Below are positions 1 to 32,525 of a stretch of DNA of 32,525 nucleotides, piece by piece. The notes under the pieces are model-generated. The model was not told the DNA's origin, searched no databases, and saw only the letters and a program-made list of their open reading frames with translations. The number at the start of each line of letters is the position of its first letter. Positions within the stretch are counted from its first letter, which is position 1. The translations under genes were made by a program, and so were the position numbers. The DNA is from a virus (Duplodnaviria; Heunggongvirae; Uroviricota; Caudoviricetes), in IMG/VR virus record IMGVR_UViG_651053023_000008; one strand, written 5' to 3'.

Positions 1-1698
1 TTAAGGTGTGGGTTGTGCCTCTTTGGTTGAGGGTTGCGTCGTTGCTGACTTAACGGTCGGACGCGTCGCCGGAACATTGTCACACGGTTGCTCTTTCGGG
101 CAGATCAAATCCAGCATTTTCAGCGTCACGCCATTGGTCCAGCCAAAGCCATCCTGTAATGGATATTCGCCACCGCCGCCCTCCGTTCCGGTGGTGCTGA
201 CATCATATTTTTCCACCAGCTTTTTCTCCCGGTCATAGGTGTGCTGAACATTGGTCAGGAAGTGCCAGCTAATGTCCATCGCCACCTCTTTTTGCCCGTA
301 GTTTTGTAATCCTTCTGTCGCGACCCACTGTAACGGTGCCCAGCCATTTGGCGCATCCCATTGTTGCCCACTTTTCACCGACGTGGTGTTCAGGCCGCCG
401 GGTTGCAGCAGATGTGTTTTCGTCGCCGTCGCCATTTTGTTGGCGCGATCTTTCGCTGCCGCATTGACGTACAGCGGGAACAGGGCGGCCGCGGTTAACT
501 GATTGCGCACTTTATGACTTTTCAGGTCGTAATCGGCATACCAGCCTTGTTGATCGTTCCACAGGTATTTTTCGATCCCTTTTTGACGGGCATTTGCCAG
601 CGTTTCGTACTGGTTTGCCATCGCGTTATCTCCGGCAGCTTTGCTGGCGCGGGCGAGGATTTTTTCCATTTTAAACATCAGGCTGTTCAGATCGACCGGT
701 ACGATGCTGGTGGTGCGTAAGGTATTTAACTGCTGCGGGTTGTCCATCCAGCGCGAGCTGAAATCCCAGCCAGACGCAGCGGCAGAGCGCAGGTCGCGGT
801 AAATTTCAGTGGCAGGTCGATTCGGATTGCTTTTGGCGGTGGCAATATCTTCCACCCATGACTCTGGTCGTGGCGTATCGCGATCGTCCCAGTAGCGGTT
901 GAGAAGGGTACCATCCTGAAGTTTGACAACGCGTTTTTCCTGTTGTCCGGCTTGCAGGTTTTCAACACCGTCCATCCAGTAAGCATATTCTTTTTGCATT
1001 TGCGGCAGGTATTGCTTCAACGCGGCATCGCCTTCATGCTGCGCCAGTAACTCTACCATCAGGGCAAAGAAGGGCGGTTGCGAGCGGCTTAAATAGTAAC
1101 TGCGGTTGCCGTTGGGAATATGACCGTAAGTGTCTATTTCATGAGCAAAATTGGCCACCATATTCGCGACTTTATCCCAGTGACCGCTTTCGGCAAGTCC
1201 TAACATGGTGAAGTAACTGTCCCAGTAATATACCTCGCGAAAGCGTCCGCCCGGCACGACATAAGGTTCCGGCAGCGGTAACAGAGAATCCCATTTTTCG
1301 GTGTTTTCGGTAGAACGCGTTAATACCGGCCAAAGTCCGTCAATATGTTCGCGCAGTGACTGCCCCTCTGGCGGAACATATTTCTCGCCTTCTTTCGGCA
1401 GGGTGAAATTGACGTTAACGAAATGGCGCAGATCAAATCCGCTCTGGTTTTGCTGCATCCGATAATCAGCAAGGATCATCAGCGGATCGCTGTTCGGCAC
1501 GGCATCGGCAAAGGTTTTTTGGTCCGGAAAAAGTTTGGCGTTTTGCACATCATTAAACAGCGGCCCTAATAAAATATCAGGCGGCTGTGGTGTTACCGGT
1601 GTTTCTTCTGCCTGCACCGATAGCGCAGCGAAACACAAAAAGATACAGGCTGGAATTAACGCCATTTTTTGCGGGCGAGAAGGTGCGGGGGATTTCAT
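1..1698 (-). CDS. treA: periplasmic trehalase TreA (host gene)
   Basis: ORF 1..1701 (566 aa) with signal peptide ([20 protein letters not shown]) and family-37 trehalase length and sequence as I recall E. coli TreA. The first ORF codon is TTG per the sequence line; the second Met (ATG ending at 1698) is the likely start. Confidence 0.9.
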
Positions 1699-1826
1699 CA
1701 ATCATTCTCCTTTGGCGAAACCGAATAAAACGGTATTCAAGTATCAGAAAACCTTAGTTCAGGATCGCACTAGCTGCATGATCGAAATCTCATTCTGCGA
1801 ACTGTCAGGCATTTTAGAAAAGGGAA

Positions 1827-2010
1827 TGTATTGATTCACTTGAAGTACGAAAAAAACCGGGAGGACATTGGATTATTCGGGATTTGGCGGGATTAGATTT
1901 TGTGGGGCTTGCAAGCCTGTAGGACAGATTTTAGCCGTTACATCTTGAAACGCGAAAGATTGTTGGAAACAGCTTTTGATTCATTAAAGACACGAAAAGC
2001 AATTACTTCA
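1827..2010 (+). repeat. attL region with three candidate MuA end-binding sites (L1 about 1831-1853, L2 about 1944-1965, L3 about 1976-2000; approximate)
   Basis: Repeated ..TTCA..GAAG/AAAG..CGAAA(A/G) motifs (tgattcacttgaagtacgaaaaa; cttgaaacgcgaaagat; ttgattcattaaagacacgaaaag) resembling the MuA end-site consensus. Confidence 0.55.
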
Positions 2011-2165
2011 CGCATCATTTCAAGTACAGCTTCAAAAATGCTTCAAAAACGGTAACAACCAGGCTTTCAGCAAGTGATGTGTGTCAAAAATAATCATCAC
2101 TGTTTGGGTATCTTACATATGTAATTACCTGGAGTGAAGTTTATGTCTTAGCTATTACCTGGTTG

Positions 2166-2690
2166 TTATACAGCTTTCTTTACATCGTTTTCTCTTACAG
2201 GGAAATTATGTTCTTTGCCTTCATACTGAGACAAAATCTCTCTCACTTTTTCCGGTGGTAATGCCTGAAGAGTTTGCAGGGTTTTCTGTTGCTCCACAGT
2301 AATCCCTAATGCCTCTAATGCCTTATCTTTACTGACAATTGTAGGCATAAGTCCTTTAATCCCTGCTACACGAATGATCTCCACAGCTGCGGCCTGCTCA
2401 TCTGGTGTTAAGAAGCTCATTGCATAAATTAGCCTCTCATCAACTGTATGGGCGATTGATGTATGCACTGGTTTATCAGAAAGTGAGGCTCCTTTAATGG
2501 CCCTGCGTGTTTCTTCTGGCAGACTGTTGATGTGATACTCATAAGCGACACCTTTCCCACCGTGACGCTGACGTTTTACCCAATCTTCCGCCACAGCTTT
2601 CCTGGTAATGTTAGTCGCCAACTTTGGTACACCAGGCATCCCTTCCAGCTCTTTCGCATTAAACCATTCTTTGATTTCAAAAGACATCAT
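2166..2690 (-). CDS. c: Mu-type repressor (c-like)
   Basis: 174-aa ORF divergent from ner at the position of the Mu repressor. Its N-terminus ([34 protein letters not shown]) parallels the transposase N-terminus ([34 protein letters not shown]). Confidence 0.8.
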   Translation of the reverse strand: MMSFEIKEWFNAKELEGMPGVPKLATNITRKAVAEDWVKRQRHGGKGVAYEYHINSLPEETRRAIKGASLSDKPVHTSIAHTVDERLIYAMSFLTPDEQAAAVEIIRVAGIKGLMPTIVSKDKALEALGITVEQQKTLQTLQALPPEKVREILSQYEGKEHNFPVRENDVKKAV

Positions 2691-2875
2691 TTAAAATCCT
2701 AGTGATTTCAATAGAGACAAAATAAATTCATATAAAAATCATGCCGTTATATAAAATCATGGCAAATCATTTCAAATCACTATTGATTTGGAAGTGATTC
2801 CACACTACATTGCACGATATGCCGTGAGCTACTTTATAGCGTAGCTCACGGGGGAATCTGAAAGGATTACATGAA
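2691..2875. promoter_or_regulatory. operator and divergent promoter region between c and ner; candidate early promoter -35 TTGATT (2783-2788) and -10 TACATT (2806-2811)
   Basis: AT-rich intergenic region with many AAATCA/TGATTT half-site repeats; hexamers with 17-bp spacing upstream of ner. Confidence 0.5.
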
Positions 2876-3097
2876 ATGCATATGAATAAAAGAACTAACC
2901 GCCAAGATTGGCACAGAGCTGACATCGTTGCAGAGCTACGAAAACGCAATATGTCACTAGCTGAATTGGGAAGATCTAATCATCTTTCGTCTTCAACATT
3001 AAAAAATGCTTTGGATAAGAGATATCCGAAAGCGGAGAAAATCATTGCAGATGCACTGGGAATGACACCGCAAGATATTTGGCCGTCTCGATACTAG
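2876..3097 (+). CDS. ner: Ner-like DNA-binding regulator
   Basis: 73-aa ORF directly before the transposase with Ner-family motifs ([14 protein letters not shown]...LAELGR......STLKNAL...[24 protein letters not shown]). Confidence 0.85.
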
Positions 3098-3104
3098 GTG
3101 CGCT

Positions 3105-5093
3105 ATGAAAGAATGGTATACAGCAAAAGAGTTGCTCGGTTTGGCAGGTTTACCAAAGCAAGCCACTAACATTACACGTAAGGCACAAAGAGAAGGCTGG
3201 GAGTTCAGGCAGGTTGCAGGGACTAAAGGTGTATCATTTGAATTCAATATCAAATCATTCCCTGTCGCATTACGTGCTGAAATTCTGTTGCAACAAGGGA
3301 GAATTGAAACCAGTCAGGGGTATTTTGAAATCGCCCGCCCCACGCTGGAAGCCCATGATTATGATCGTGAGGCACTGTGGAGCAAATGGGATAACGCCAG
3401 CGATTCCCAGCGCAGACTTGCTGAAAAATGGTTGCCTGCGGTTCAGGCTGCAGACGAAATGCTGAACCAGGGGATTTCAACGAAAACGGCATTTGCGACC
3501 GTTGCAGGACATTACCAGGTCAGCGCATCCACTTTGCGAGACAAATATTACCAGGTACAGAAGTTTGCGAAGCCTGACTGGGCGGCTGCGCTTGTTGATG
3601 GACGTGGTGCATCCCGTCGCAACGTTCACAAAAGTGAATTTGACGAGGATGCCTGGCAGTTTCTGATTGCAGATTATCTGCGACCAGAAAAACCCGCCTT
3701 TCGCAAATGTTATGAGCGTCTGGAACTGGCAGCCCGCGAGCATGGCTGGAGTATTCCCTCCCGTGCCACGGCCTTTCGCCGGATTCAGCAACTGGACGAG
3801 GCAATGGTTGTTGCCTGCCGTGAAGGTGAACATGCACTGATGCATCTGATACCGGCACAGCAGCGAACTGTGGAACACCTGGACGCCATGCAGTGGATCA
3901 ACGGCGACGGTTATCTGCATAACGTCTTTGTACGCTGGTTTAACGGTGATGTGATCCGCCCGAAAACATGGTTCTGGCAGGATGTGAAAACCCGAAAAAT
4001 TCTGGGCTGGCGCTGCGATGTGAGCGAGAACATTGATTCAATTCGCCTCTCGTTCATGGATGTGGTGACACGCTACGGCATCCCGGAAGATTTTCACATC
4101 ACCATTGATAACACCCGTGGGGCAGCGAATAAATGGCTGACGGGGGGCGCGCCCAATCGTTACCGCTTTAAGGTGAAAGAGGACGATCCAAAGGGACTGT
4201 TTTTACTGATGGGCGCGAAAATGCACTGGACAAGCGTTGTTGCCGGTAAAGGCTGGGGCCAGGCAAAACCTGTTGAACGTGCTTTCGGTGTTGGTGGGCT
4301 TGAGGAATACGTTGATAAGCATCCGGCACTGGCTGGCGCATATACGGGGCCAAATCCGCAGGCAAAACCTGATAACTATGGCGACCGTGCTGTTGATGCA
4401 GAGCTGTTTCTGAAAACCCTTGCTGAAGGTGTGGCGATGTTCAATGCCAGAACAGGCCGTGAAACAGAAATGTGCGGGGGCAAACTCTCGTTTGATGATG
4501 TTTTCGAGCGTGAATACGCCAGAACGATTGTGCGTAAGCCAACCGAAGAACAAAAACGGATGCTGTTACTGCCTGCCGAAGCGGTGAACGTTTCACGCAA
4601 AGGCGAGTTTACGCTTAAAGTTGGCGGCTCCCTTAAAGGCGCGAAAAACGTTTATTACAACATGGCGTTAATGAATGCAGGCGTGAAAAAAGTTGTGGTC
4701 AGGTTTGATCCGCAGCAGCTACACAGCACAGTTTATTGCTACACCCTGGACGGTCGGTTTATCTGTGAAGCGGAATGTCTGGCACCTGTTGCATTTAATG
4801 ATGCTGCGGCAGGCCGTGAATATCGCCGCCGCCAGAAACAACTGAAATCTGCAACTAAAGCAGCCATTAAGGCGCAGAAACAAATGGACGCGCTGGAAGT
4901 TGCTGAACTGCTGCCGCAGATAGCCGAACCAGCAGCACCAGAATCAAGGGTTGTTGGTATTTTCCGGCCTGTGGGTAACACAGTACGGGTTAAATATCGC
5001 ACCCCCGATGATAAATACGAACCCGCTCGTGATGAATATCTGAATCAGTCACTGGATATTCTGGAACAGAAAAGACGTAAAAAAGCCATTTAA
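3105..5093 (+). CDS. A: Mu-type DDE transposase A
   Basis: 662 aa; N-terminal end and enhancer-binding domain, central catalytic core, C-terminal region, at the Mu A position; sequence closely matches MuA as I recall it. Confidence 0.95.
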
Positions 5094-5131
5094 TTAACGT
5101 TTAAACAAAATTTAATTACGAGGTTATTCAG

Positions 5132-6091
5132 ATGAATATTTCCGATATTCGCGCAGGACTGCGCACGCTTGTAGAAAATGGAGAAACCACGCTGACACGC
5201 ATCGCCAGTGAATCAGGCGTGGCCCTGAGCACAGTCAGTGGTTTTGTGAATGATAAATATAACGGCAACATGGAATCAGTCGGGCGCACACTGGAACGCT
5301 GGCTGGAAAACTATCACCGCGCAGAAGAACTGCCGGAACCCCCGCGTTTTGTGGAAACTGCAACAGCCCGTCAAATCTGGACAAGTATGCGTTTTGCTAA
5401 TCTGACCGGAACCATTGCTGTTATCTGCGGTAATCCAGGAGTGGGTAAAAGCGAAGCAGCCCGTGAATTTTGTCGCACTAATAATAATGTCTGGATGATC
5501 ACCATTGCGCCATCCCGTGCCAGTACGCTGGAATGTCTGACTGAACTTGCCGAAGAGTTGGGAATGAATAATGCACCATGTCGCAAAGGACCGCTTTCCC
5601 GTAACCTGCGTCGCCGCCTGAAAGGAACGCAGGGACTGGTCATTGTTGACGAAGCTGATCACCTTGACACCGAAGCGCTGGAAGAGCTCCGTCTGTTACA
5701 GGAGTCCGCCTGTATTGGTCTTGTTCTGATGGGGAATCACCGTGTTTATTCAAATATGACCGCTAATGGCGACAGAACAATTGAGTTTGCCCGTCTGTTT
5801 TCCCGTATTGCAAAGCGCACAGCAATTAATAAAACCAAAGAAGACGATGTAAACGCAATTGCGGATGCCTGGCAGATTACCGGGAAAAATGAACGGGAAT
5901 TATTACAGCAGATTGCACAAACGCCTGGTGCGCTCCGCATTATGAATCAAACGCTGCGCCTTGCTGTTATGAATGCCTTCGGTAAAGGCGAACGTGTTAA
6001 TGAGGATTATCTGCGTGAGGCTTACAAAGAGTTAGACCAGGACGTTGATGTTTCGATGCTGCTGGGTGTGCAAGGGGATGCTGAATCATGA
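5132..6091 (+). CDS. B: transposition ATPase and target-capture protein B
   Basis: 319 aa; Walker A motif GNPGVGKS; directly downstream of A. Confidence 0.9.
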
Positions 6092-6315
6092 TGTCACGGA
6101 ATATCAAAATGGCGACGGAAGTAAAGACCTGGTTACAGGAGCGCGGCAGCCACGTCAACGAATCCTGGCTGGGCGTGGCCCGCCCGGTGCTTGAAATTAC
6201 CTGCCCGCCACCGGAGCTGGTCAGAAACGCTGTCAGGATTATGGAGCATAAATCAGGGGTTGCCCGTTCCGTATGGACGGCCCGCCTTAATGGTTGCCAG
6301 ATTATCTGGCGTTAA
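6088..6315 (+). CDS. small early protein at the Mu kil position (Kil-like, unverified)
   Basis: 75-aa ORF; ATGA overlap with the B stop. Confidence 0.5.
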
Positions 6316-6347
6316 TAACGGCTTATTTATTTGTGAGGAATAACAAA

Positions 6348-6617
6348 ATGGCAAAAGTAATCTTTGAATTTAACAATACAAGAAATATTGAGTTTCAGGA
6401 AAATGGAGGTTTTGCCGTAAATATGAATGTGCGACTGGAAGAATCCTCACCTGAGGACCAGACCGGGCCACATGATGTAATGGCAGGCATCATCAAGAGC
6501 ATGGCTCCTGAAATCATTAAAAAAGCGACCGAGGATTTGTTGAAATCAGCCAGGGAGCTTGGGCTGGAAGCCGAAGGCGAGTTATTCCGGTATAACCCGG
6601 ATGCAGCTAAATATTAA
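6348..6617 (+). CDS. hypothetical early protein
   Basis: ATG 6348 preceded by a GAGGA ribosome-binding site; 89 aa. Confidence 0.5.
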   Translation: MAKVIFEFNNTRNIEFQENGGFAVNMNVRLEESSPEDQTGPHDVMAGIIKSMAPEIIKKATEDLLKSARELGLEAEGELFRYNPDAAKY

Positions 6618-6637
6618 TTCGCAAAGGAACGCTGACA

Positions 6638-7057
6638 ATGAAAGCCAAAATCAGAAACGAAATTCAGGCATTAATTCGGATTAAAGAGCGTAATAGCAAT
6701 GGTGGAGACTTGCGCGAATTTATTTGCGCGCGCGAAGTTGAGGGATATGGCGAAAAGACTTACCTGATTGCATTCGACCATTACAGCATTTGTGCGCGTT
6801 ATTGCGGGGAGGCGGTATTCCGCGCCATTACGTTTGGCAATGCCTTCAATGTGGATTTATGGGAATACGTCATGGACCGTGAATACATCAGCGCGTCAGA
6901 CCCGGACGCACGGGAGCAGTGGCAGAACATCTGGCGCGATTACCGGCAAATGGCGAAAGGCTGGACGCAGGGGACGTATTCTTCCCTTGCCCTGAAAGCG
7001 GTTCAGTTATCGCTGCGGCATGTTCCGTCAGTACGGTTTGAACTTGCGGTGCACTGA
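6638..7057 (+). CDS. hypothetical early protein
   Basis: 139-aa ORF in the co-oriented early operon. Confidence 0.5.
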   Translation: MKAKIRNEIQALIRIKERNSNGGDLREFICAREVEGYGEKTYLIAFDHYSICARYCGEAVFRAITFGNAFNVDLWEYVMDREYISASDPDAREQWQNIWRDYRQMAKGWTQGTYSSLALKAVQLSLRHVPSVRFELAVH

Positions 7058-7074
7058 TACAGGAGGGCGACATC

Positions 7075-7363
7075 ATGATACCCCCTCGTAAAAGATGGTC
7101 ACGTGAAGACCGGGAATTTATCGAAGCCAGTGTCGGGAAAATGACTGTTGAAGAAATGGCGAAAAAAACTGAACGTTGCCCCAACCGCCCTACAGGCACA
7201 TGCCAGAAGACACGGAATATCGTTGTGTGCATACCGGGTCAGTGAGCACGACAAATATTTGTGTCGTGAACTTTATAAAGAAGGGCTGGATATTCATGTC
7301 ATTACCCAAAAGATGGAATTAAGCAATCGTGCTGTATCCAGCATTGTATACAGCGAATATTAA
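7075..7363 (+). pseudogene. small HTH-like early gene split by a +1 frameshift in an A7 run (7162-7168)
   Basis: ATG 7075 with an AGGAGGG ribosome-binding site reads to a stop at 7245; ORF 7148..7363 continues in the next frame. Removing one A gives a single 95-aa product ...MTVEEMAKKLNVAPTALQAHARRHGISL.... Confidence 0.45.
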
Positions 7364-7383
7364 TTAACAGGAGCTTTATTTAT

Positions 7384-7908
7384 ATGGCTAAACCAGCAAA
7401 ACGAATCAAGAATGCAGCAGCGGCTTATGTTCCACAGTCCCGCGATGCCGTGGTATGTGATATCCGCCGGATTGGTGACCTGCAACGCGAAGCGGCACGA
7501 CTTGAAACGGAAATGAATGACGCTATCGCTGAAATTACAGAGAAATACGCCTCACAGATTGCGCCGCTAAAAACCAGTATCGAAACCCTTTCAAAAGGCG
7601 TTCAGGGATGGTGTGAAGCGAACCGTGACGAACTGACGAACGGCGGCAAGGTGAAGACGGCGAACCTGGTAACCGGCGATGTGTCATGGCGTCAGCGCCC
7701 ACCATCGGTAAGTATTCGCGGTGTGGATGCGGTGATGGAAACACTGGAGCGTCTTGGCCTGCAACGCTTTATTCGCACGAAACAGGAAATCAACAAGGAA
7801 GCGATTTTACTGGAACCGAAAGCGGTCGCAGGTGTTGCCGGAATTACAGTTAAATCAGGCATTGAAGATTTTTCTATTATTCCGTTTGAACAGGAAGCCG
7901 GTATTTAA
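7384..7908 (+). CDS. gam: Gam host-nuclease inhibitor (Mu Gam family)
   Basis: 174 aa, same length and sequence pattern as Mu Gam as I recall it. Confidence 0.9.
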   Translation: MAKPAKRIKNAAAAYVPQSRDAVVCDIRRIGDLQREAARLETEMNDAIAEITEKYASQIAPLKTSIETLSKGVQGWCEANRDELTNGGKVKTANLVTGDVSWRQRPPSVSIRGVDAVMETLERLGLQRFIRTKQEINKEAILLEPKAVAGVAGITVKSGIEDFSIIPFEQEAGI

Positions 7909-8006
7909 TATCACCATTAATATTTAATTAGTTCACTTTCTTTTAATTATGGCGCGATGCGTCAGGGGATTGCTCGCGCCTGAAACAGATTACTGAGGAA
8001 TAAAAA

Positions 8007-19749: not shown

Positions 19750-19832
19750 CCCGTCATCCGTAATCTGTTGTAACCCGCAATGACTGGCTGATTAGCTGTA
19801 TCGGCACCAACCTGTCACCGCACCCGGCGTGG

Positions 19833-20426
19833 ATGTGGGCCGCGTCATACGGCGCAACGGCAGCGTATCACCTTGCCATTGACCCGGCGCGTCCGCTTCA
19901 GACGCTGGTCCTGACCGGCATTCTGCCGCCTGCGCGTAATGTTCGCTGGGATATGCCGGAACGTAACCTGCTGCTGCATGACGGCATTGCCACGCACATG
20001 GTGGACGCCGGGGATAACGTCTGCATAGAGCGTGAAATCACCATGTACCGGGTTAATCAGTACGGTGATGCGGATGTGTCGTACCTTGATGTGCAGTCAC
20101 CCGCCACGCTGGGCCGTATCCGTTACATCATCAAGAACCGTTTCACGAACCGTTATCCGCGCCACAAGCTGGCAGATGATGACGTGCTGGACTCACTGGA
20201 TGCCGGTCAGCCGGTGATGACGCCGAAGCTGTGCACCGCAGAGCTGCTGGATATCTGCCAGACCGAACTTATTCCTGCGGGCCTTGTGGAGAACTTCAGC
20301 GATTACAAGGACACGCTTCAGGTGACACGCGACAGCAGCGATAAAAACCGTCTGAACTTTATCTGTCACCCGAATCTGGTGAACCAGCTGCGTGTGCTGG
20401 CAGGCCTGATTCAGTTCAAGCTTTAA
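19833..20426 (+). CDS. hypothetical tail-region protein; possibly the C-terminal remnant of a contractile-sheath gene
   Basis: 197-aa ORF. The reading frame is open upstream to 19764 with no start codon and no ribosome-binding site before ATG 19833; it sits where the sheath gene would be in Mu. Confidence 0.4.
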   Translation: MWAASYGATAAYHLAIDPARPLQTLVLTGILPPARNVRWDMPERNLLLHDGIATHMVDAGDNVCIEREITMYRVNQYGDADVSYLDVQSPATLGRIRYIIKNRFTNRYPRHKLADDDVLDSLDAGQPVMTPKLCTAELLDICQTELIPAGLVENFSDYKDTLQVTRDSSDKNRLNFICHPNLVNQLRVLAGLIQFKL

Positions 20427-24396: not shown

Positions 24397-25467
24397 TGGA
24401 ATCCGTGATTCTTACCGTTGACGGCAAATTGTGGGAAGGCTGGACGGAAATGTCCGTCAGCCGTTCCCTGAAGGCGATTGCCGGTGAGTTTGATCTCAGT
24501 GTGACAACCCGCTGGTCAGCGGCGGCACCGCGCGTGATACGTGAGGGGCAACCCTGCACGGTCAGGCTGGGTGCGGATACCGTGCTGACAGGGTATATCG
24601 ATGATTTTATCCCCAGCTATGACGCAGATAACGTGGAGATTCGCGTCATGGGGCGCGACAAAAACCGGCGACCTGGTGGACTGCTCTGTGGTGCATTCAT
24701 CCGGGAAATGGAAAGGCGTGCGGCTGGAACAGGTAGCGGCTGATGTCTGCCGCCCGTTCGGGATAGCCGTCATCACGGAAACCCCGACCGGGGAGGCGTT
24801 TGCGTCCGTTGTTCTGGAACAGGGTGAAACGGGCTTTGAACTGCTCGACCGGCTGGCAAAACAGCGCGGCGTTCTGCTGACGTCTGACGGCGCAGGTAAC
24901 CTGATTATCACCCGCGCCTCTTCCGTTCGCGCGGGCGTGTCACTGGTGCTGGGGAAAAATATCCTCGCCGCCCGTGGGCGCTTCAGCTGGCGGGAGCGTA
25001 ACAGCCAGTACATCATCAAGGGCACCACCAGTGCCGGTGGCAAACTGTGGGACAGCCAGCCTGCCTCGATGGTGGGTGGTCGCCAGTACATCACCGAAGA
25101 CCCGGAAATTAACCGTTACCGCCCGCGCATTCTGGTCAATGAAGACAGCCTGACCGTGGGCGGGGCCAGCATTCGCGGGGAATGGTACAAAGCCCGGATG
25201 CTGGGGGAATCCCGCACGACGGAAATCACGGTGGCAGGCTGGCGCGAACAGGGCGACAGCGGCCCGCTGTGGCAGACCAACCGCCTTGTCGATATCGACG
25301 ACAGCATTCAGAACCTGAAAACCACCTGGCTGATATCCGGGGTGACCTGGACGGATGGCGCACAGGGGCGGATGACGGTTCTGGCGCTGGTTCCGCCTGA
25401 ATCACTGGATATGCCGGAAATGAAAGCGAAGACGAAGAAAACAAAGGCGGTGGCCACATGGGATTAA
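24396..25467 (+). pseudogene. baseplate hub protein (Mu Q-like) with a +1 frameshift in an A5 run (24660-24664)
   Basis: ORFs 24396..24743 and 24601..25467 join into one 357-aa product (..VMGRDKTGDLVDCSVV..) if one A is removed. Confidence 0.6.
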
Positions 25468-26443: not shown

Positions 26444-27510
26444 AATCCCCACGCTGGGCAAACTGATTGCCGACGGCGAAAAAGATATTGCGTATGAACT
26501 CGGCCTGCAAAAGCTGCCGCCTGTCAGTGTTGAGCAGGCGCTGAATGTGTCATTCAGCAGTCAGGTCCGGGATTTATACGACCATCAGAGCTGGATCAAG
26601 GACCAGATAATTCCGTCCACTACGTCTGATGATGAAACCATTATCAAAAACAGCAACGTATGAAGGGGTTATCCGCAAGCAGGCCACCTTTGCCAGCGGG
26701 CCGGTGACCTTCACCAGTCAGTCCCCCATTCCGGCAGAAACCCGGATGCAGTCCGACACGAATCAGGTGTATCAGGTACTCACATCCGGCGAGGTACAGG
26801 ACGGCGAGGTCACTGTCATCGTGCAGGCTGAAGAAGCCGGTGTGGCGGGCAATCTTGCTGCCGGTGCCGTGCTGACCCTGTTATCCCCGCTACCCGGAAC
26901 GGGCAGCACAGGCGCGGTGACTGAAAGTGGCATCACCGGTGGCGCAGACATCGAATCCATCGCAGAGCTGCTGGACCGTCTGCTGTATGTGCGCCGCAAT
27001 CCCCCGGTGGGCGGTGCACTGCATGATTACGTCATCTGGGCGCGTGAAGTGCCGGGTGTCAGCCGCGCGTGGGCATGGGATGCGTGGCACGGCCCCGGCA
27101 CGGTCGGGCTGGCATGGCTTTATGATGACCGTGAAGACATTATCCCCACACGGGACGACCTGAAGACAATGGAGCAGTATCTGTTCTGCCACAAACACCC
27201 TGCCACCGGCGTGATGGTGGGCAAACCGGGCGGCATCGAGGTCTGGCCGGTGCAGGTCAGGCTGAAGAAGCTCGACCTGTCCATCCGTCTGACACCGGAC
27301 AGCCAGGCGAACAGGAACGCCGTCCGGGCAAACCTGACCGCATTGCAGAAAACGCTGGCCCCCGGTCAGATGCTGCCGGTGTCCTCGCTGCGCACGGCCA
27401 TCGGTATGACGTCCGGTATCACGGATTACTTCCTCAACATCGGGGAGGACACCACCAGTGATGTGGATGAGCTTATCACCATCGGGGAGGTGACATGGCT
27501 CACAGCGTGA
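26433..27510 (+). pseudogene. baseplate J-like protein (Mu gp47-like) with a +1 frameshift in an A5 run (26646-26650)
   Basis: ORFs 26433..26663 and 26629..27510 join into one 359-aa product (..DDETIIKTATYEGVIRKQATFASG..) if one A is removed. Confidence 0.6.
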
Positions 27511-28082: not shown

Positions 28083-28970
28083 ATGTTTCATGTGGATAAT
28101 CCGACGGGTGTGCCAGTGATGCCACCTGTCGCGGCTGAATTAAGCAAAACAACGCTTTATTTTACCGAAGGCGGGAACGGTATTCCGCCCACTTATCCGG
28201 GGCCGGACTGGTTTAATATTATTCAGTCTGAACTGCTGGAAATTCTCCGGCAGGCAAATATCAAACCGGATAAAAACACAACCGACCAGATTATGACAGC
28301 GCTGAAAAAAACTGTTTATTACGAACAGTGGTTCAGCCGGAGCTATTGCCGGATTAACCGGTCAGAATAATACGTTCCCGTATTTTACGGCGAAGACACA
28401 ATGGCATTAACGCCGCTCAGTGCTTTTGTGCGCGGTATTCTCGGGAAAAACACAGCCGGTGAAATTATCGACGCGCTTTTATTACGTGACACGGTAAATA
28501 AAGCTAATAGTGCTGTACCGAATACCCGCAGGGTCAACGGCATGGCTCTGTCTTCGGATATCACCATCAGCAACATCAGCGGCAACGCCGGAACGGCAAC
28601 CCGACTTCAGACGGCCCGCAGGATTAACAATGTGCTGTTTGATGGCAGCCGCGATATCACGATTTCTGCGGGAATGTCACAAACTGAAGGTGACAACCGT
28701 TACCAGCAAAAAAACACGGCGTCAAAAGCCGGTAATGGCTGGTTTAAGGACACGTCCACCGGGGTGATTATTCAGTGGGGGTATCTCGGCAATGCCAGTG
28801 CCGGGCTGACGTTTCCGATATCATTTCCGTCAGCATGTACCAGCATCACTATTACCAACGCATACACCCGTGCTGATTACTCTATTTCCCTGAAATCGTT
28901 ATCAGCAGCAGGTGCGACATTCAACAGCGAGAATAACGGCGTTATGTACTGGACAGCGATAGGGTATTAA
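28083..28970 (+). pseudogene. tail fibre gene (S-like) interrupted by two compensating indels (extra A in the A7 run 28305-28311; likely missing G at 28389-28390)
   Basis: Conserved fibre N-terminus (MFHVDNPTGVPVMPPVAAELSKTTLYFTEGGNGIPP). The fibre motif GLTGQNNTFPYFT is encoded in frame +1 between the two ORFs; the C-terminal ORF 28401..28970 continues with MALTPLSAFVRGILGK. Confidence 0.55.
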
Positions 28971-29410
28971 TGATGACTATTTATTTCAGCCCATCAACAA
29001 ACGGTTTTTATCATTCTGGCCTTCAGGGTGATTATGAAAATGCGGGAACGTGGCCGAATGATTTACAGGAAATCACGGATGAAGAATATCAGAGACTGTT
29101 ACAGGGCCAGACTGACGGTTTTATTATTGTATCTGGCGAAAACGGATATCCGGTATTAAAAGAACCCGTAATTAACTGGCAGCAGAAAGCGGAAACGCAA
29201 CGCCAGCACCTGCTGGCTGAAGCAAGGGAAATCACCTCCGACTGGAAAACCGAGCTGGAGCTGGGCACCATCAGCGACGATGATAAAGCCCGTCTTACGC
29301 AGTGGATGGCATATATCAAAGCGGTAAAGGCACTGGATTTAAGCACCGTTACTGACGAAGACTCCTTTTATTCCATCAACTGGCCGGAGCGTCCCGATGC
29401 CGCAGCTTAA
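28970..29410 (+). CDS. tail fibre assembly chaperone (Tfa-like)
   Basis: 146 aa immediately after the fibre gene; Tfa-like sequence. Confidence 0.7.
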   Translation: MMTIYFSPSTNGFYHSGLQGDYENAGTWPNDLQEITDEEYQRLLQGQTDGFIIVSGENGYPVLKEPVINWQQKAETQRQHLLAEAREITSDWKTELELGTISDDDKARLTQWMAYIKAVKALDLSTVTDEDSFYSINWPERPDAAA

Positions 29411-31004
29411 AGGTGTGATTAAAACGCCCACGGGAGAACCGCTGGGCGGCGCAACCATTACATTGACCTCCCTGCACAACCGCGCAGGGATTCTGAAAAG
29501 TGTTTTCAGCCATGTCACCACACAGAACGGGGAATATGACTTCCCCGTTCTGCCGGGTGTGTACAGCGTTCGCCTGACACAAAGCACACAGCGCCTTTCA
29601 GAAATCGGTGTCATCCGCGTTTATGAAGATTCAGCGGACGGTTCGTTGAATGATTTTCTGGGTGCAACCGATATTGACCTGCGCCCGGAAGCCCTGAAGA
29701 AATTCGAAGAGCTGGCGCAACAGGCGCAGCAAAGCGCAGAAGCCGCAGCGGAAAGCGAGCGACAGGCCGGGCAACATGTCGCTGATGCGCAGAAGATAAA
29801 GAAAGACTGTCAGACGCTGGCGGATAACGTACAGCAGAACGCAGAAGCCGTAGCGGCCAGCAAACAGCACGTTGAACAGCTGGCCTCAGAAGTTGAGCTG
29901 AACGCCGGGCAGGTGCAGCAGGGCGTGCAGAATGTTACTGATGCGGTAAAAAAGGCGCAGCAGGCAGCAAAGGATTCTGCTGACAGTGCCACAGATTCGA
30001 AAAACAGTGCTGACAATGCGGCACTGAGCGAACAGAACGCACAAAAACACGCGCAGAAAGCTGAACAACACGAGCAGCAGACTAAACAATATGCGCAGGA
30101 TGCAGCGACCGCCGCAGAATCAGCAGAGAACGCCAAAGGCGAAATTGACGAAATTCTGGAAGGTGGCTATCTCAAGATAAAAAACAACTTTCAGGAAATT
30201 GTTGATGCTGGCCCGTCAGCACTGGCTCAGGCCCAATGGAATTTACAGATTTCCGGGGTGAAAAATAAACAGGTAATTGCCACCCCTTATACATGGCCAT
30301 CCAGAACTGAGTATGAACAAAGGGTGCATCTGCCACTCGCCGGGGCTTACGGATTTGGCTACACATTTGAAGACCAAAGCCAGGGGCGAATAAATTTTAA
30401 TGAGGGCTATACGGCGTCGTGGTGGTCACAGTGGGCGAAACCTGGTCGTTATTACGTCAGCGCCAGTGATAAAGAATACCTCGCACCTGAAGGAGAAAGG
30501 TGGGGGATTGTTGATTTGCTGTGGCTTAATGGCAGCGGATATAACGATGCTTCGAAGGTTCTGAAGATACTGGCTTTTTACGACTCAGACGGGCACTTAC
30601 ACATAGGCAAGCGCGTTGGTCAGAGCGACTGGTCAATAAGCTGGCGCAAGCTGGCATCGCTCTCTGATGTCAGGGCCATGCTGTATTCATATATTTATAA
30701 TAATTACAACAGAGAATGGCGAGACCCGGAACTGGGAGGTTTAATTCTGGCGTCATACCAGGGAACCGCAGACGGCGACACAAATATAAAAGTATCCCGT
30801 GGTCAGACTTATCCCGGCTCGCGACTCGCTCCTGTGGCGATAGAATGCCAGTTCACCCCATCCGGCACGTATGCTGCAACACCGCGATTCTACATTACCG
30901 GCTGCAAGAGCAAATCACTCCCCGGAACTTATATTTCATTGTCTGGCGCGCCAACAACATACAGCGACCAGGCATTTGTTGCGCTATTCATGAGGATTGT
31001 ATGA
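29397..31004 (+). CDS. side tail fibre protein (lambda Stf-like N-terminus, coiled-coil shaft, C-terminal receptor-binding region)
   Basis: 535 aa; N-terminus parallels lambda Stf (..TITL......VYSV.L......IRVYEDS.DGSLNDFL); long Ala/Gln/Glu-rich helical shaft; AT-richer 3' third. Confidence 0.75.
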   Translation: MPQLKGVIKTPTGEPLGGATITLTSLHNRAGILKSVFSHVTTQNGEYDFPVLPGVYSVRLTQSTQRLSEIGVIRVYEDSADGSLNDFLGATDIDLRPEALKKFEELAQQAQQSAEAAAESERQAGQHVADAQKIKKDCQTLADNVQQNAEAVAASKQHVEQLASEVELNAGQVQQGVQNVTDAVKKAQQAAKDSADSATDSKNSADNAALSEQNAQKHAQKAEQHEQQTKQYAQDAATAAESAENAKGEIDEILEGGYLKIKNNFQEIVDAGPSALAQAQWNLQISGVKNKQVIATPYTWPSRTEYEQRVHLPLAGAYGFGYTFEDQSQGRINFNEGYTASWWSQWAKPGRYYVSASDKEYLAPEGERWGIVDLLWLNGSGYNDASKVLKILAFYDSDGHLHIGKRVGQSDWSISWRKLASLSDVRAMLYSYIYNNYNREWRDPELGGLILASYQGTADGDTNIKVSRGQTYPGSRLAPVAIECQFTPSGTYAATPRFYITGCKSKSLPGTYISLSGAPTTYSDQAFVALFMRIV

Positions 31005-31570
31005 TGCAGATTAAAGAAATCACCAGCCCCCGTTATACCGAATCCGGTGCGATTGACTGCGACGTTCTGTTTGAGGAAATGGAAGCCCCTGTTCCCTACA
31101 CTGCCACGCCGGACGATACAGCGAAAACCGGTCAGCAAATCTGGCAGGAACTGCAAAGCGGAAAATGGGGTGAAATAACCCCGTTTGCCGTCACGCCGGA
31201 ACTTATCGCAGCGGCGAAGGATGCCAAAAAACGGGAGATTGAGGCATGGCGCACAGAACAGGAGGCGCAGCCATTCACGTTCGAATGGAACGGTCGTACC
31301 TGGAATGCTGGTCCCGATTCGATGGCTCGCATTGCGCCCGTGGCAATGGCCGCAAAAGTGGCAGGTGCACGGGCAACGCTGGGGTGGGGGGATGCAGCAA
31401 ACAGCCTTGTCACCATGACAATGGCGCAGCTTCAGGAGCTGGCAGCAACAATGGCGCAGGCGCAAACCGAGCGCAATACTGTGATTTATCGTCGTCAGCG
31501 TGAGATGAAAGAGCAGCTTTCCCTGTTGACCACACTGAACGAAATAAGAGCATTCACACCCGGCGATTAA
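31001..31570 (+). CDS. tail fibre assembly protein or chaperone
   Basis: 189 aa; ATG overlaps the fibre stop. Confidence 0.55.
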   Translation: MMQIKEITSPRYTESGAIDCDVLFEEMEAPVPYTATPDDTAKTGQQIWQELQSGKWGEITPFAVTPELIAAAKDAKKREIEAWRTEQEAQPFTFEWNGRTWNAGPDSMARIAPVAMAAKVAGARATLGWGDAANSLVTMTMAQLQELAATMAQAQTERNTVIYRRQREMKEQLSLLTTLNEIRAFTPGD

Positions 31571-31693
31571 ATAATCATTTTGTATAGTTTATGACGATCG
31601 ATAACATCATATCGATCGTCGGTTTGCATCATATGTGATTAAATACCCCCAGCCCTCCGGGCGGTCATGTCTGGTTATTACACAGGGGGAATC
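31571..31693 (+). promoter_or_regulatory. com and mom promoter region with Dam GATC sites (31596-31599, 31614-31617) inside 7-bp inverted repeats
   Basis: GATCGAT ... ATCGATC arrangement directly upstream of com, consistent with the methylation-sensitive upstream region of the Mu mom operon. Confidence 0.55.
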
Positions 31694-31879
31694 ATGGACT
31701 CTGTTCGCTGTAAAAACTGCAATAAATTACTGTTTAAAGGAGGTTTTAAGCATATAGAAATTAAATGCCCTCGCTGTAAACGTTACATTGTCATATCGAA
31801 TGCCAAAGAGCATCCCACGGAGCTGTATTGTGGGAAAAGAGAAGAAATCACGCATTCTGACAAAACCCTGCGTTATTGA
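31694..31879 (+). CDS. com: Com zinc-finger translational activator of mom
   Basis: 61 aa from ATG 31694 (AGGGGGA ribosome-binding site); CKNC...x16...CPRC zinc finger; overlaps the mom start. Confidence 0.85.
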
Positions 31880-32525
31880 GTATGAAGGTCGTATTGTCGG
31901 CTATGGTTCAAAGGAGCTACGTGTTGAAACCATATCCTGCTGGCTGGCCCGCACAATCATTCAGACAAAACACTATTCCCGCCGTTTTGTGAATAACTCC
32001 TACCTGCATCTTGGCGTATTCAGCGGACGTGATCTGGTTGGCGTTCTTCAGTGGGGATATGCCCTTAACCCCAACTCAGGGCGTCGGGTCGTGCTTGAAA
32101 CGGATAACCGGGGCTATATGGAACTGAACCGCATGTGGCTACACGACGACATGCCCCGCAACTCTGAATCACGGGCTATCAGCTACGCGCTGAAAGTTAT
32201 CAGGTTACTGTATCCGTCAGTTGAGTGGGTTCAGTCTTTTGCAGACGAACGCTGCGGACGTGCTGGCGTGGTATATCAGGCGTCGAATTTTGATTTTATT
32301 GGTAGCCATGAAAGCACGTTCTACGAGCTGGACGGCGAGTGGTATCACGAGATAGCGATGAACGCGATTAAGCGCGGAGGGCAACGAGGCGAGTATTTGC
32401 GGGCTAATAAGGAGCGGGCCGTGGTACACAAATTTAATCAGTATCGCTACATCAGGTTCCTGAACAAGCGCGCAAAAAAGCGCCTAAACACCAAGCTATT
32501 CAGGATTCAGCCATACCCGAAGTGA
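31800..32525 (+). CDS. mom: Mom DNA modification protein
   Basis: ORF overlapping the 3' end of com and ending at the window edge; sequence matches Mu Mom as I recall it. Start uncertain (ATG 31800 or GTG 31830). Confidence 0.85.

Follow-up and report, generated by a model that had tools for sequence, protein, structure and literature searches.

A D108-immunity, Mu-like prophage in the treA–dhaM intergenic region and its probably small effect on treA

A Mu-like prophage begins at position 1827 of the window (the entire 32,525-nucleotide stretch of DNA analyzed here), between the periplasmic trehalase gene treA and dhaM. Taken as a whole, the evidence described below is very probably best explained by a Mu-family phage of the D108 immunity type that was inserted into the treA–dhaM intergenic region and resides there as a tail-defective prophage, with a near-neutral effect on treA.

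Results

Left end of the prophage and its host flank

The treA gene (565 amino acids, complete coding sequence) occupies 1–1698 on the minus strand, as identified from the MG1655 annotation and by Pfam (Trehalase, E = 1e-179). Transfer of the MG1655 annotation with an offset of +1179 places its start at the ATG at 1698, which is invariant in an alignment of the upstream regions of ten Enterobacteriaceae from several genera, the in-frame TTG at 1701 being variable. The phage end and this ATG are separated by 128 bases. The distance of 126 bp from the treA start codon given in the preliminary description was wrong, because the TTG at 1701 had been taken as the start instead of the ATG at 1698, as it also was in the mechanical list of open reading frames. 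Positions 1–1826, consisting of treA and part of the treA–dhaM intergenic region, are 99.9% identical to many Escherichia coli genomes. In the two complete genomes NZ_CP147059.1 and NZ_AP043606.1, the match to this segment falls into two pieces ~1.36 kb apart, with an IS110-like ISSfl8 transposase annotated under the match, representing another mobile-element insertion at or near treA. The first base of the window belongs to the treA stop codon and the last (32525) to the mom stop codon; because the window was cut at these gene boundaries, the right end of the prophage, 115 bp further on, is missing from it.

Within the window, the prophage extends on the plus strand from its left (c) end at 1827 to the mom stop at 32525, as defined by homology to D108, the ends of related prophages, the right junction found in another assembly (L014, see below), and in-silico excision. 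The left end opens with TGTATTGATTCACTTGAAGTACGAAAAAAACCGGGAGGAC (TGTATTGATTCAC...). In a megablast search of 1827–8000 against phage records, base 1 of D108 aligned with position 1827, with 91% identity over 6.2 kb (E = 0), and SfMu and then Mu ranked after D108. The phage half of the junction, used as a query against 5,426 complete E. coli genomes, matched dozens of them; the homology began at the equivalent of 1827 in most of the matches listed, and one to three bases earlier in a few. The host genes adjoining the left end are unrelated between genomes (potE, pduA, ygfK, ssuA, nrdE, yehR, and others) and the flanks differ in every genome examined, which places these ends at many unrelated chromosomal sites. 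With base 1 of D108 aligning at 1827 and the ends of the relatives being identical, the earlier proposal that a Mu-type prophage starts here, upstream of treA, is confirmed.

The transposase-binding region of the left end spans 1831–1998 (plus strand), as delineated by matches to the consensus core, a family of direct repeats, and the D108 annotation. It comprises L1 (1831–1853, with its core GAAGTACGAAAA at 1842–1853), L2 (core GAAACGCGAAAG at 1947–1958), and L3 (1976–1998, a 74% repeat of L1); the core RAARYRCGAAAR is matched exactly twice, at 1842–1853 and 1947–1958. The positions of the L sites correspond to those annotated in D108 (bases 11–27 and 156–172), and the L-site blocks are invariant across an alignment of five related left ends.

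Right end, empty site, and target-site duplication

The right junction was taken from a draft assembly located by an exact-protein look-up of the tail-fiber protein encoded at 29397–31004. At one of the ten places found, L014 (GCA_011938085.1, contig AARFWK010000021.1), the genes dhaM, dhaL, dhaK, and dhaR come after mom, and L014 is identical to window positions 28410–32525 (4116/4116). Thus, the junction was read in an assembly other than the window's own record, one in which a contig break falls within the stretch covered by the window; from the 100% identity and the exactly matching target, we infer that the insertion in the window is presumably the same as that in L014. There, the right end finishes with ...GCGCCGCTTCA (...GCTTCA), followed by GGGAA (in the window's own genome, ...GCGCCGCTTCA, GGGAA, and TTAAAGGG would be expected in this order); around the junction, ...CGTGCGCCGCTTCA, GGGAA, and TTAAAGGGATAAATAACGG stand in succession, the host continuation reading TTAAAGGGATAAATAACGGCG. 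The transposase-binding sites of the right end were recognized by eye in the same contig. The end lies 115 bp beyond the mom stop codon, corresponding to an estimated position of 32640 and a total prophage length of ~30,814 bp. The right end of the related prophage in STEC346, ...GTGCGCCGCTTCA, is likewise located 115 bp past the mom stop.

The empty treA–dhaM intergenic region is 319 bp long in MG1655 and in strain 300709, the closest prophage-free strain (99.9% identical), and at the switch point both read ...AGAAAAGGGAA directly continued by TTAAAGGGATAAATAACGG. The sequence after GGGAA in L014 is the exact continuation of this prophage-free site. The pentamer GGGAA at 1822–1826 (plus strand), which the preliminary description had taken as a possible target-site duplication, is indeed repeated after the right end in L014 and is single in the empty site, being the left copy of the duplication. 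Inspection of the right end for a terminal CA followed by GGGAA and comparison with a prophage-free strain had also been suggested; the CA and the pentamer are found in L014, just outside the window, and the empty site is restored without a gap upon removal of one GGGAA. In the in-silico excision, window positions 1–1826 were joined to the L014 sequence following GGGAA, and the construct aligned with strain 300709 gaplessly over 4326 bp with one mismatch, and also gaplessly with MG1655. Since the join is gapless, the prophage represents a simple insertion, in which GGGAA was duplicated and no host DNA was lost.

The phage ends, TG at 1827–1828 and ...CA in L014, are joined directly to host DNA, and the relatives in which both ends are visible (n = 3) also have TG...CA ends, with the 5-bp duplications CTCAG, ACGGA, and TCCGG. 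The reported target consensus is CYSRG, with a preference of only about 7-fold (PMC7350765). GGGAA fits this consensus at 2 of 5 positions, which is not a contradiction because the preference is so small. A phage with an integrase targeting an att site or a tRNA gene was considered and rejected, since the host sequences at the two junctions are the treA side and the dhaM side of a single intergenic region, and both the ends and the duplication are of the Mu type. In the empty site, the target pentamer sits within the direct repeat AAAGGGAATTAAAGGGA (L001 2996–3016; 1816–1826 on the window side), and the insertion splits two copies of AAAGGGA lying 11 bp apart; conservation of the upstream copy does not extend to other Escherichia species.

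Early genes, com–mom, and late region

A divergent arrangement of the c repressor gene and the ner–A–B early operon adjoins the left end. The c gene (2166–2690, minus strand) encodes a repressor of the D108 immunity type with 174 amino acids, 172 of which are identical to those of D108 c (Pfam HTH_Tnp_Mu_1, E = 3e-51). On the plus strand, ner (2876–3097, 73 amino acids) was assigned from its open translation and its position, which corresponds to D108 ner at 1050–1271; the gene for transposase A (3105–5093, 662 amino acids) contains the Pfam domains DDE_2 (E = 2e-136), HTH_Tnp_Mu_1, HTH_Tnp_Mu_2, and Mu-transpos_C, and that for the transposition ATPase B (5132–6091, 319 amino acids) contains Phage-MuB_C and AAA_22. 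All Pfam scores for MuA and MuB are far above the curated cut-offs. The exact 174-residue c sequence occurs in 4,190 blocks of a large assembly collection, with neighboring host genes that differ at nearly every place shown; in view of this number and these varied neighbors, D108-type immunity is very widespread among the Mu-like prophages carried by E. coli and related bacteria. When the c repressor was looked up to find a contig with the left junction, treA was a neighbor in 0 of the 10 places shown.

At the opposite end, com (31694–31879) and mom (31830–32525) are the last genes before the right end (31694–32525, plus strand), with 89% nucleotide identity to Mu, D108, and SfMu, a Pfam Mom match with an E-value of 9e-76, and 100% identity to the L005 proteins in tblastn. 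Over its last 822 bases, the window matches com–mom of these three phages. The intervening lysis/head/tail region (8001–31700) does not resemble Mu or D108 at the DNA level: of 24.5 kb, at most 8% is covered in the phage collection, in which no close match of the late region was found among the sequenced phage isolates. The late region is 94–97% identical to Mu-like prophages in E. coli chromosomes; it is matched in 199 of the 5,426 complete E. coli genomes and covered to at least 80% in 45 of the 5,426, each at its own site. Neither gin nor the invertible G segment gave a match.

The TG...CA ends, the 5-bp duplication, MuA and MuB, the L sites, the varied targets, and the c/ner–A–B layout are all those of the Mu/D108 group. 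The high identity over most of the genome that characterizes the species Muvirus mu (Mu, D108, and SfMu) is not found; because only the ends, the early region, and com–mom match and the rest is covered to 8% or less, the prophage is not a member of this species. Judged from its sequence, the prophage belongs to the Mu-like group as a mosaic, in which D108-type ends, immunity, transposition genes, and com–mom are combined with a non-Mu late region.

Deletion and frame breaks in the head and tail genes

In comparison with the STEC346 prophage (L004), the blastn segments break at 19766–19779 (plus strand), the junction of a ~2.9-kb deletion spanning from the major head gene to the middle of the sheath gene. 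Four head–tail genes and the first 274 amino acids of the sheath are gone: the four genes have no tblastn matches in the window, and only residues 275–491 of the sheath remain by tblastn, in an open reading frame at 19833–20426 in which Pfam finds only C-terminal sheath parts. An independent assembly that is 98.75% identical (L025) shows the identical deletion junction, and the deletion is therefore real and common to diverged copies.

Additional frame breaks were called against the intact homologs in L005. The tail tube frame is broken at ~20702 by the loss of 1 bp from a G-run, as judged against L025, the baseplate hub (gpP-like) at ~24652–24665, and baseplate J at ~26647–26657, and the open reading frame of a Gp53-like fiber is split at ~28370–28401. 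These breaks could mark true pseudogenes or stem from sequencing errors in homopolymers, the latter being illustrated by the location of the 20702 break in a G-run. The genes c, ner, A, and B and both prophage ends appear to be intact. Because head–tail connector genes and the sheath N-terminus are lost and the tail genes are frame-broken, the prophage is predicted to be defective for tail formation, yet it is probably still capable of transposition. Internal deletions are also found in a Mu-like element in AP027411.1 (~2.81–2.85 Mb), where two deleted copies of the same element (L009 and L010) lie ~14 kb apart in opposite orientation and flank the ygeW–yqeC region. Both ends of L010 are visible with the ACGGA duplication, and the pair is laid out as intramolecular replicative transposition, or an inversion between copies, might leave it.

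The treA upstream region retained next to the prophage

The treA promoter has been described as a –35 hexamer ATGCAG and a –10 hexamer TAAGGT with a 17-bp spacer (PMC5650638, in a table citing Repoila & Gutierrez 1991). All of these elements are present, with ATGCAG at 1779–1774, TAAGGT at 1756–1751, and a 17-bp spacer, so that the 128 bp of upstream DNA still joined to treA (1699–1826, minus strand) carries both promoter hexamers. The phage end is located 47 bp upstream of the –35 hexamer; with the transcription start derived from the hexamer positions, it would lie at roughly –83. Among seven Escherichia lineages, the mean pairwise identity is 0.85 in the retained 128 bp versus 0.38 in the 191 bp displaced by the prophage, and the latter segment is replaced by unrelated sequence in three of the lineages. 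The block conserved among Escherichia starts at about –115 from the ATG, and the insertion lies ~13 bp outside of it. As the promoter and the whole Escherichia-conserved block stay with treA, loss of treA regulatory sequence by the insertion appears unlikely, although E. coli-specific upstream elements may lie within the displaced 191 bp. No Rfam family was detected in the window or in the MG1655 locus.

Discussion

The insertion conforms to the standard mechanism of Mu transposition with its 5-bp stagger (PMC7350765). The MuA transpososome assembles on the sites of the L and R ends, and the 3' ends of the phage (5'-TG...CA-3') are joined to target phosphates 5 bp apart; the ensuing repair copies the pentamer, here GGGAA. 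Host DNA was not lost, and the left (c) end faces treA at 128 bp from the ATG and 47 bp from the –35 hexamer. Since the core promoter and the whole Escherichia-conserved block remain with treA, the prophage is most likely carried almost neutrally and hardly affects the RpoS- and osmolarity-dependent expression of treA. Any read-through from dhaKLM into treA would be blocked by it.

An error in the junction itself has to be weighed against this reading. The treA–phage junction was found in 0 of the 5,426 complete E. coli genomes, as would be the case if it were an assembly artefact or if the phage ended elsewhere; D108 at its base 1 and the relatives with verified duplications all begin with TGTATTGATTCAC, and an independent assembly contains the reciprocal junction with the predicted duplication. 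We therefore consider such an error extremely improbable, and misassembly was rejected on the basis of the reciprocal junction in L014, its GGGAA, and the gapless excision. A different question is whether an authentic insertion alters the expression of treA by read-out from the repressor promoter Pc through c and the left end, which would give lysogens an additional, constitutive level of treA expression depending on neither RpoS nor osmolarity. The c gene is transcribed toward the left end and treA, both genes being on the minus strand, with only 468 nt between the c stop codon and the treA ATG; no canonical intrinsic terminator was detected between them either by a consensus scan or by a scan for hairpins followed by U-tracts, and the D108 annotation lists no terminator after c. 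However, a conserved inverted repeat (2053–2168, minus strand; arms 2053–2063 and 2158–2168), the 11–12-bp arms of which are 100% complementary and invariant in five relatives, brackets ~94 nt and closes an RNA structure starting at the stop codon of c (c-strand fold, –31.9 kcal/mol; z = –3.4) and is followed, here and in D108, by the U-run CCGUUUUUG. This structure might be a non-canonical terminator of the c transcripts; alternatively, it may be another conserved left-end element, common to phages with different repressors. In addition, the ~470 nt are untranslated and thus exposed to Rho, and repressor transcription in Mu lysogens is weak, strong polarity being a classical property of Mu insertions. 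Read-out from Pc may occur, but a measurable effect of it on treA is judged unlikely.

The insertion could also lower or deregulate treA expression by moving cis elements beyond –83, such as sites for nucleoid proteins, ~31 kb away, or by changing the local topology. In favor of such a displacement, 191 bp of A/T-rich intergenic DNA now stand apart from treA and the AAAGGGA pair is split; as for topology, the two ends of a Mu prophage have been reported to come together and set up a chromosomal domain of their own (PMC3820752). Against it, the displaced DNA is the poorly conserved and, in three lineages, replaced segment described above, the insertion leaves the core promoter and the –40 to –60 region untouched, and the papers searched yielded no site for a regulator in this region. 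An effect of this kind is thus improbable. It is still less probable that the left end rewires treA, through Pc read-through or a change in DNA context or topology at about –83, to such an extent that trehalase expression has become uncoupled in part from RpoS and osmolarity in this lineage. If true, this rewiring would represent regulation of a host gene by a domesticated Mu-type element, which is tail-defective and has kept its transposition genes.

As far as can be read from the DNA, the prophage upstream of treA is an ordinary strain-specific Mu-type insertion with probably small consequences for treA. Its exact boundaries are fixed, from 1827 to ~32640 with the duplication GGGAA, although their importance goes little beyond annotation. 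The locus provides a clean example of a transposable-phage insertion that could be checked even though its far end is outside the window, and a lineage in which D108-type immunity and transposition go with a late region unlike that of Mu holds modest interest for the cataloguing of prophages.

Comparison with known phages and prophages

The prophage resembles D108 (NC_013594 / GQ357916) in its terminal sequence, which is identical from base 1, in its TG...CA ends, in the c repressor (172/174 amino acids), in ner, A, B, and the early region (91% DNA identity over 6.2 kb), and in com–mom (~89%). In contrast, the DNA for lysis, head, and tail of D108 is almost without similarity to that of the prophage; gene 56, which follows mom in D108, is absent, since the right end of the prophage is located 115 bp after mom as in the STEC346 prophage; and the D108 genome is 37.2 kb long, compared with ~30.8 kb. 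With Mu (NC_000929), the prophage shares the MuA and MuB domains, the 5-bp target duplication, the near-random targets, and the gene order from c–ner–A–B to com–mom, whereas the immunity regions are different, the megablast similarity starting only at query base 1467 inside gene A, and the late genes of Mu also differ from those of the prophage.

SfMu (KP010268), which has a D108-type repressor and Ner (PMC4406740), shows a Mu-like early region with 88.6% DNA identity over 92% of 1827–8000, but its late region is Mu-like, unlike that of the prophage. The late part of the prophage is closely related to that of the STEC346 prophage (L004, NZ_CP091044.1 1923461–1958880), with 96.5% identity over 90% of 8001–32525, and the two have the same ends, the STEC346 prophage being flanked by the 5-bp duplication CTCAG. 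They differ in that the STEC346 prophage encodes a 196-residue repressor, only about 29% identical to c of the prophage studied here, and keeps the 2.9-kb head–tail/sheath segment that is deleted in the window.
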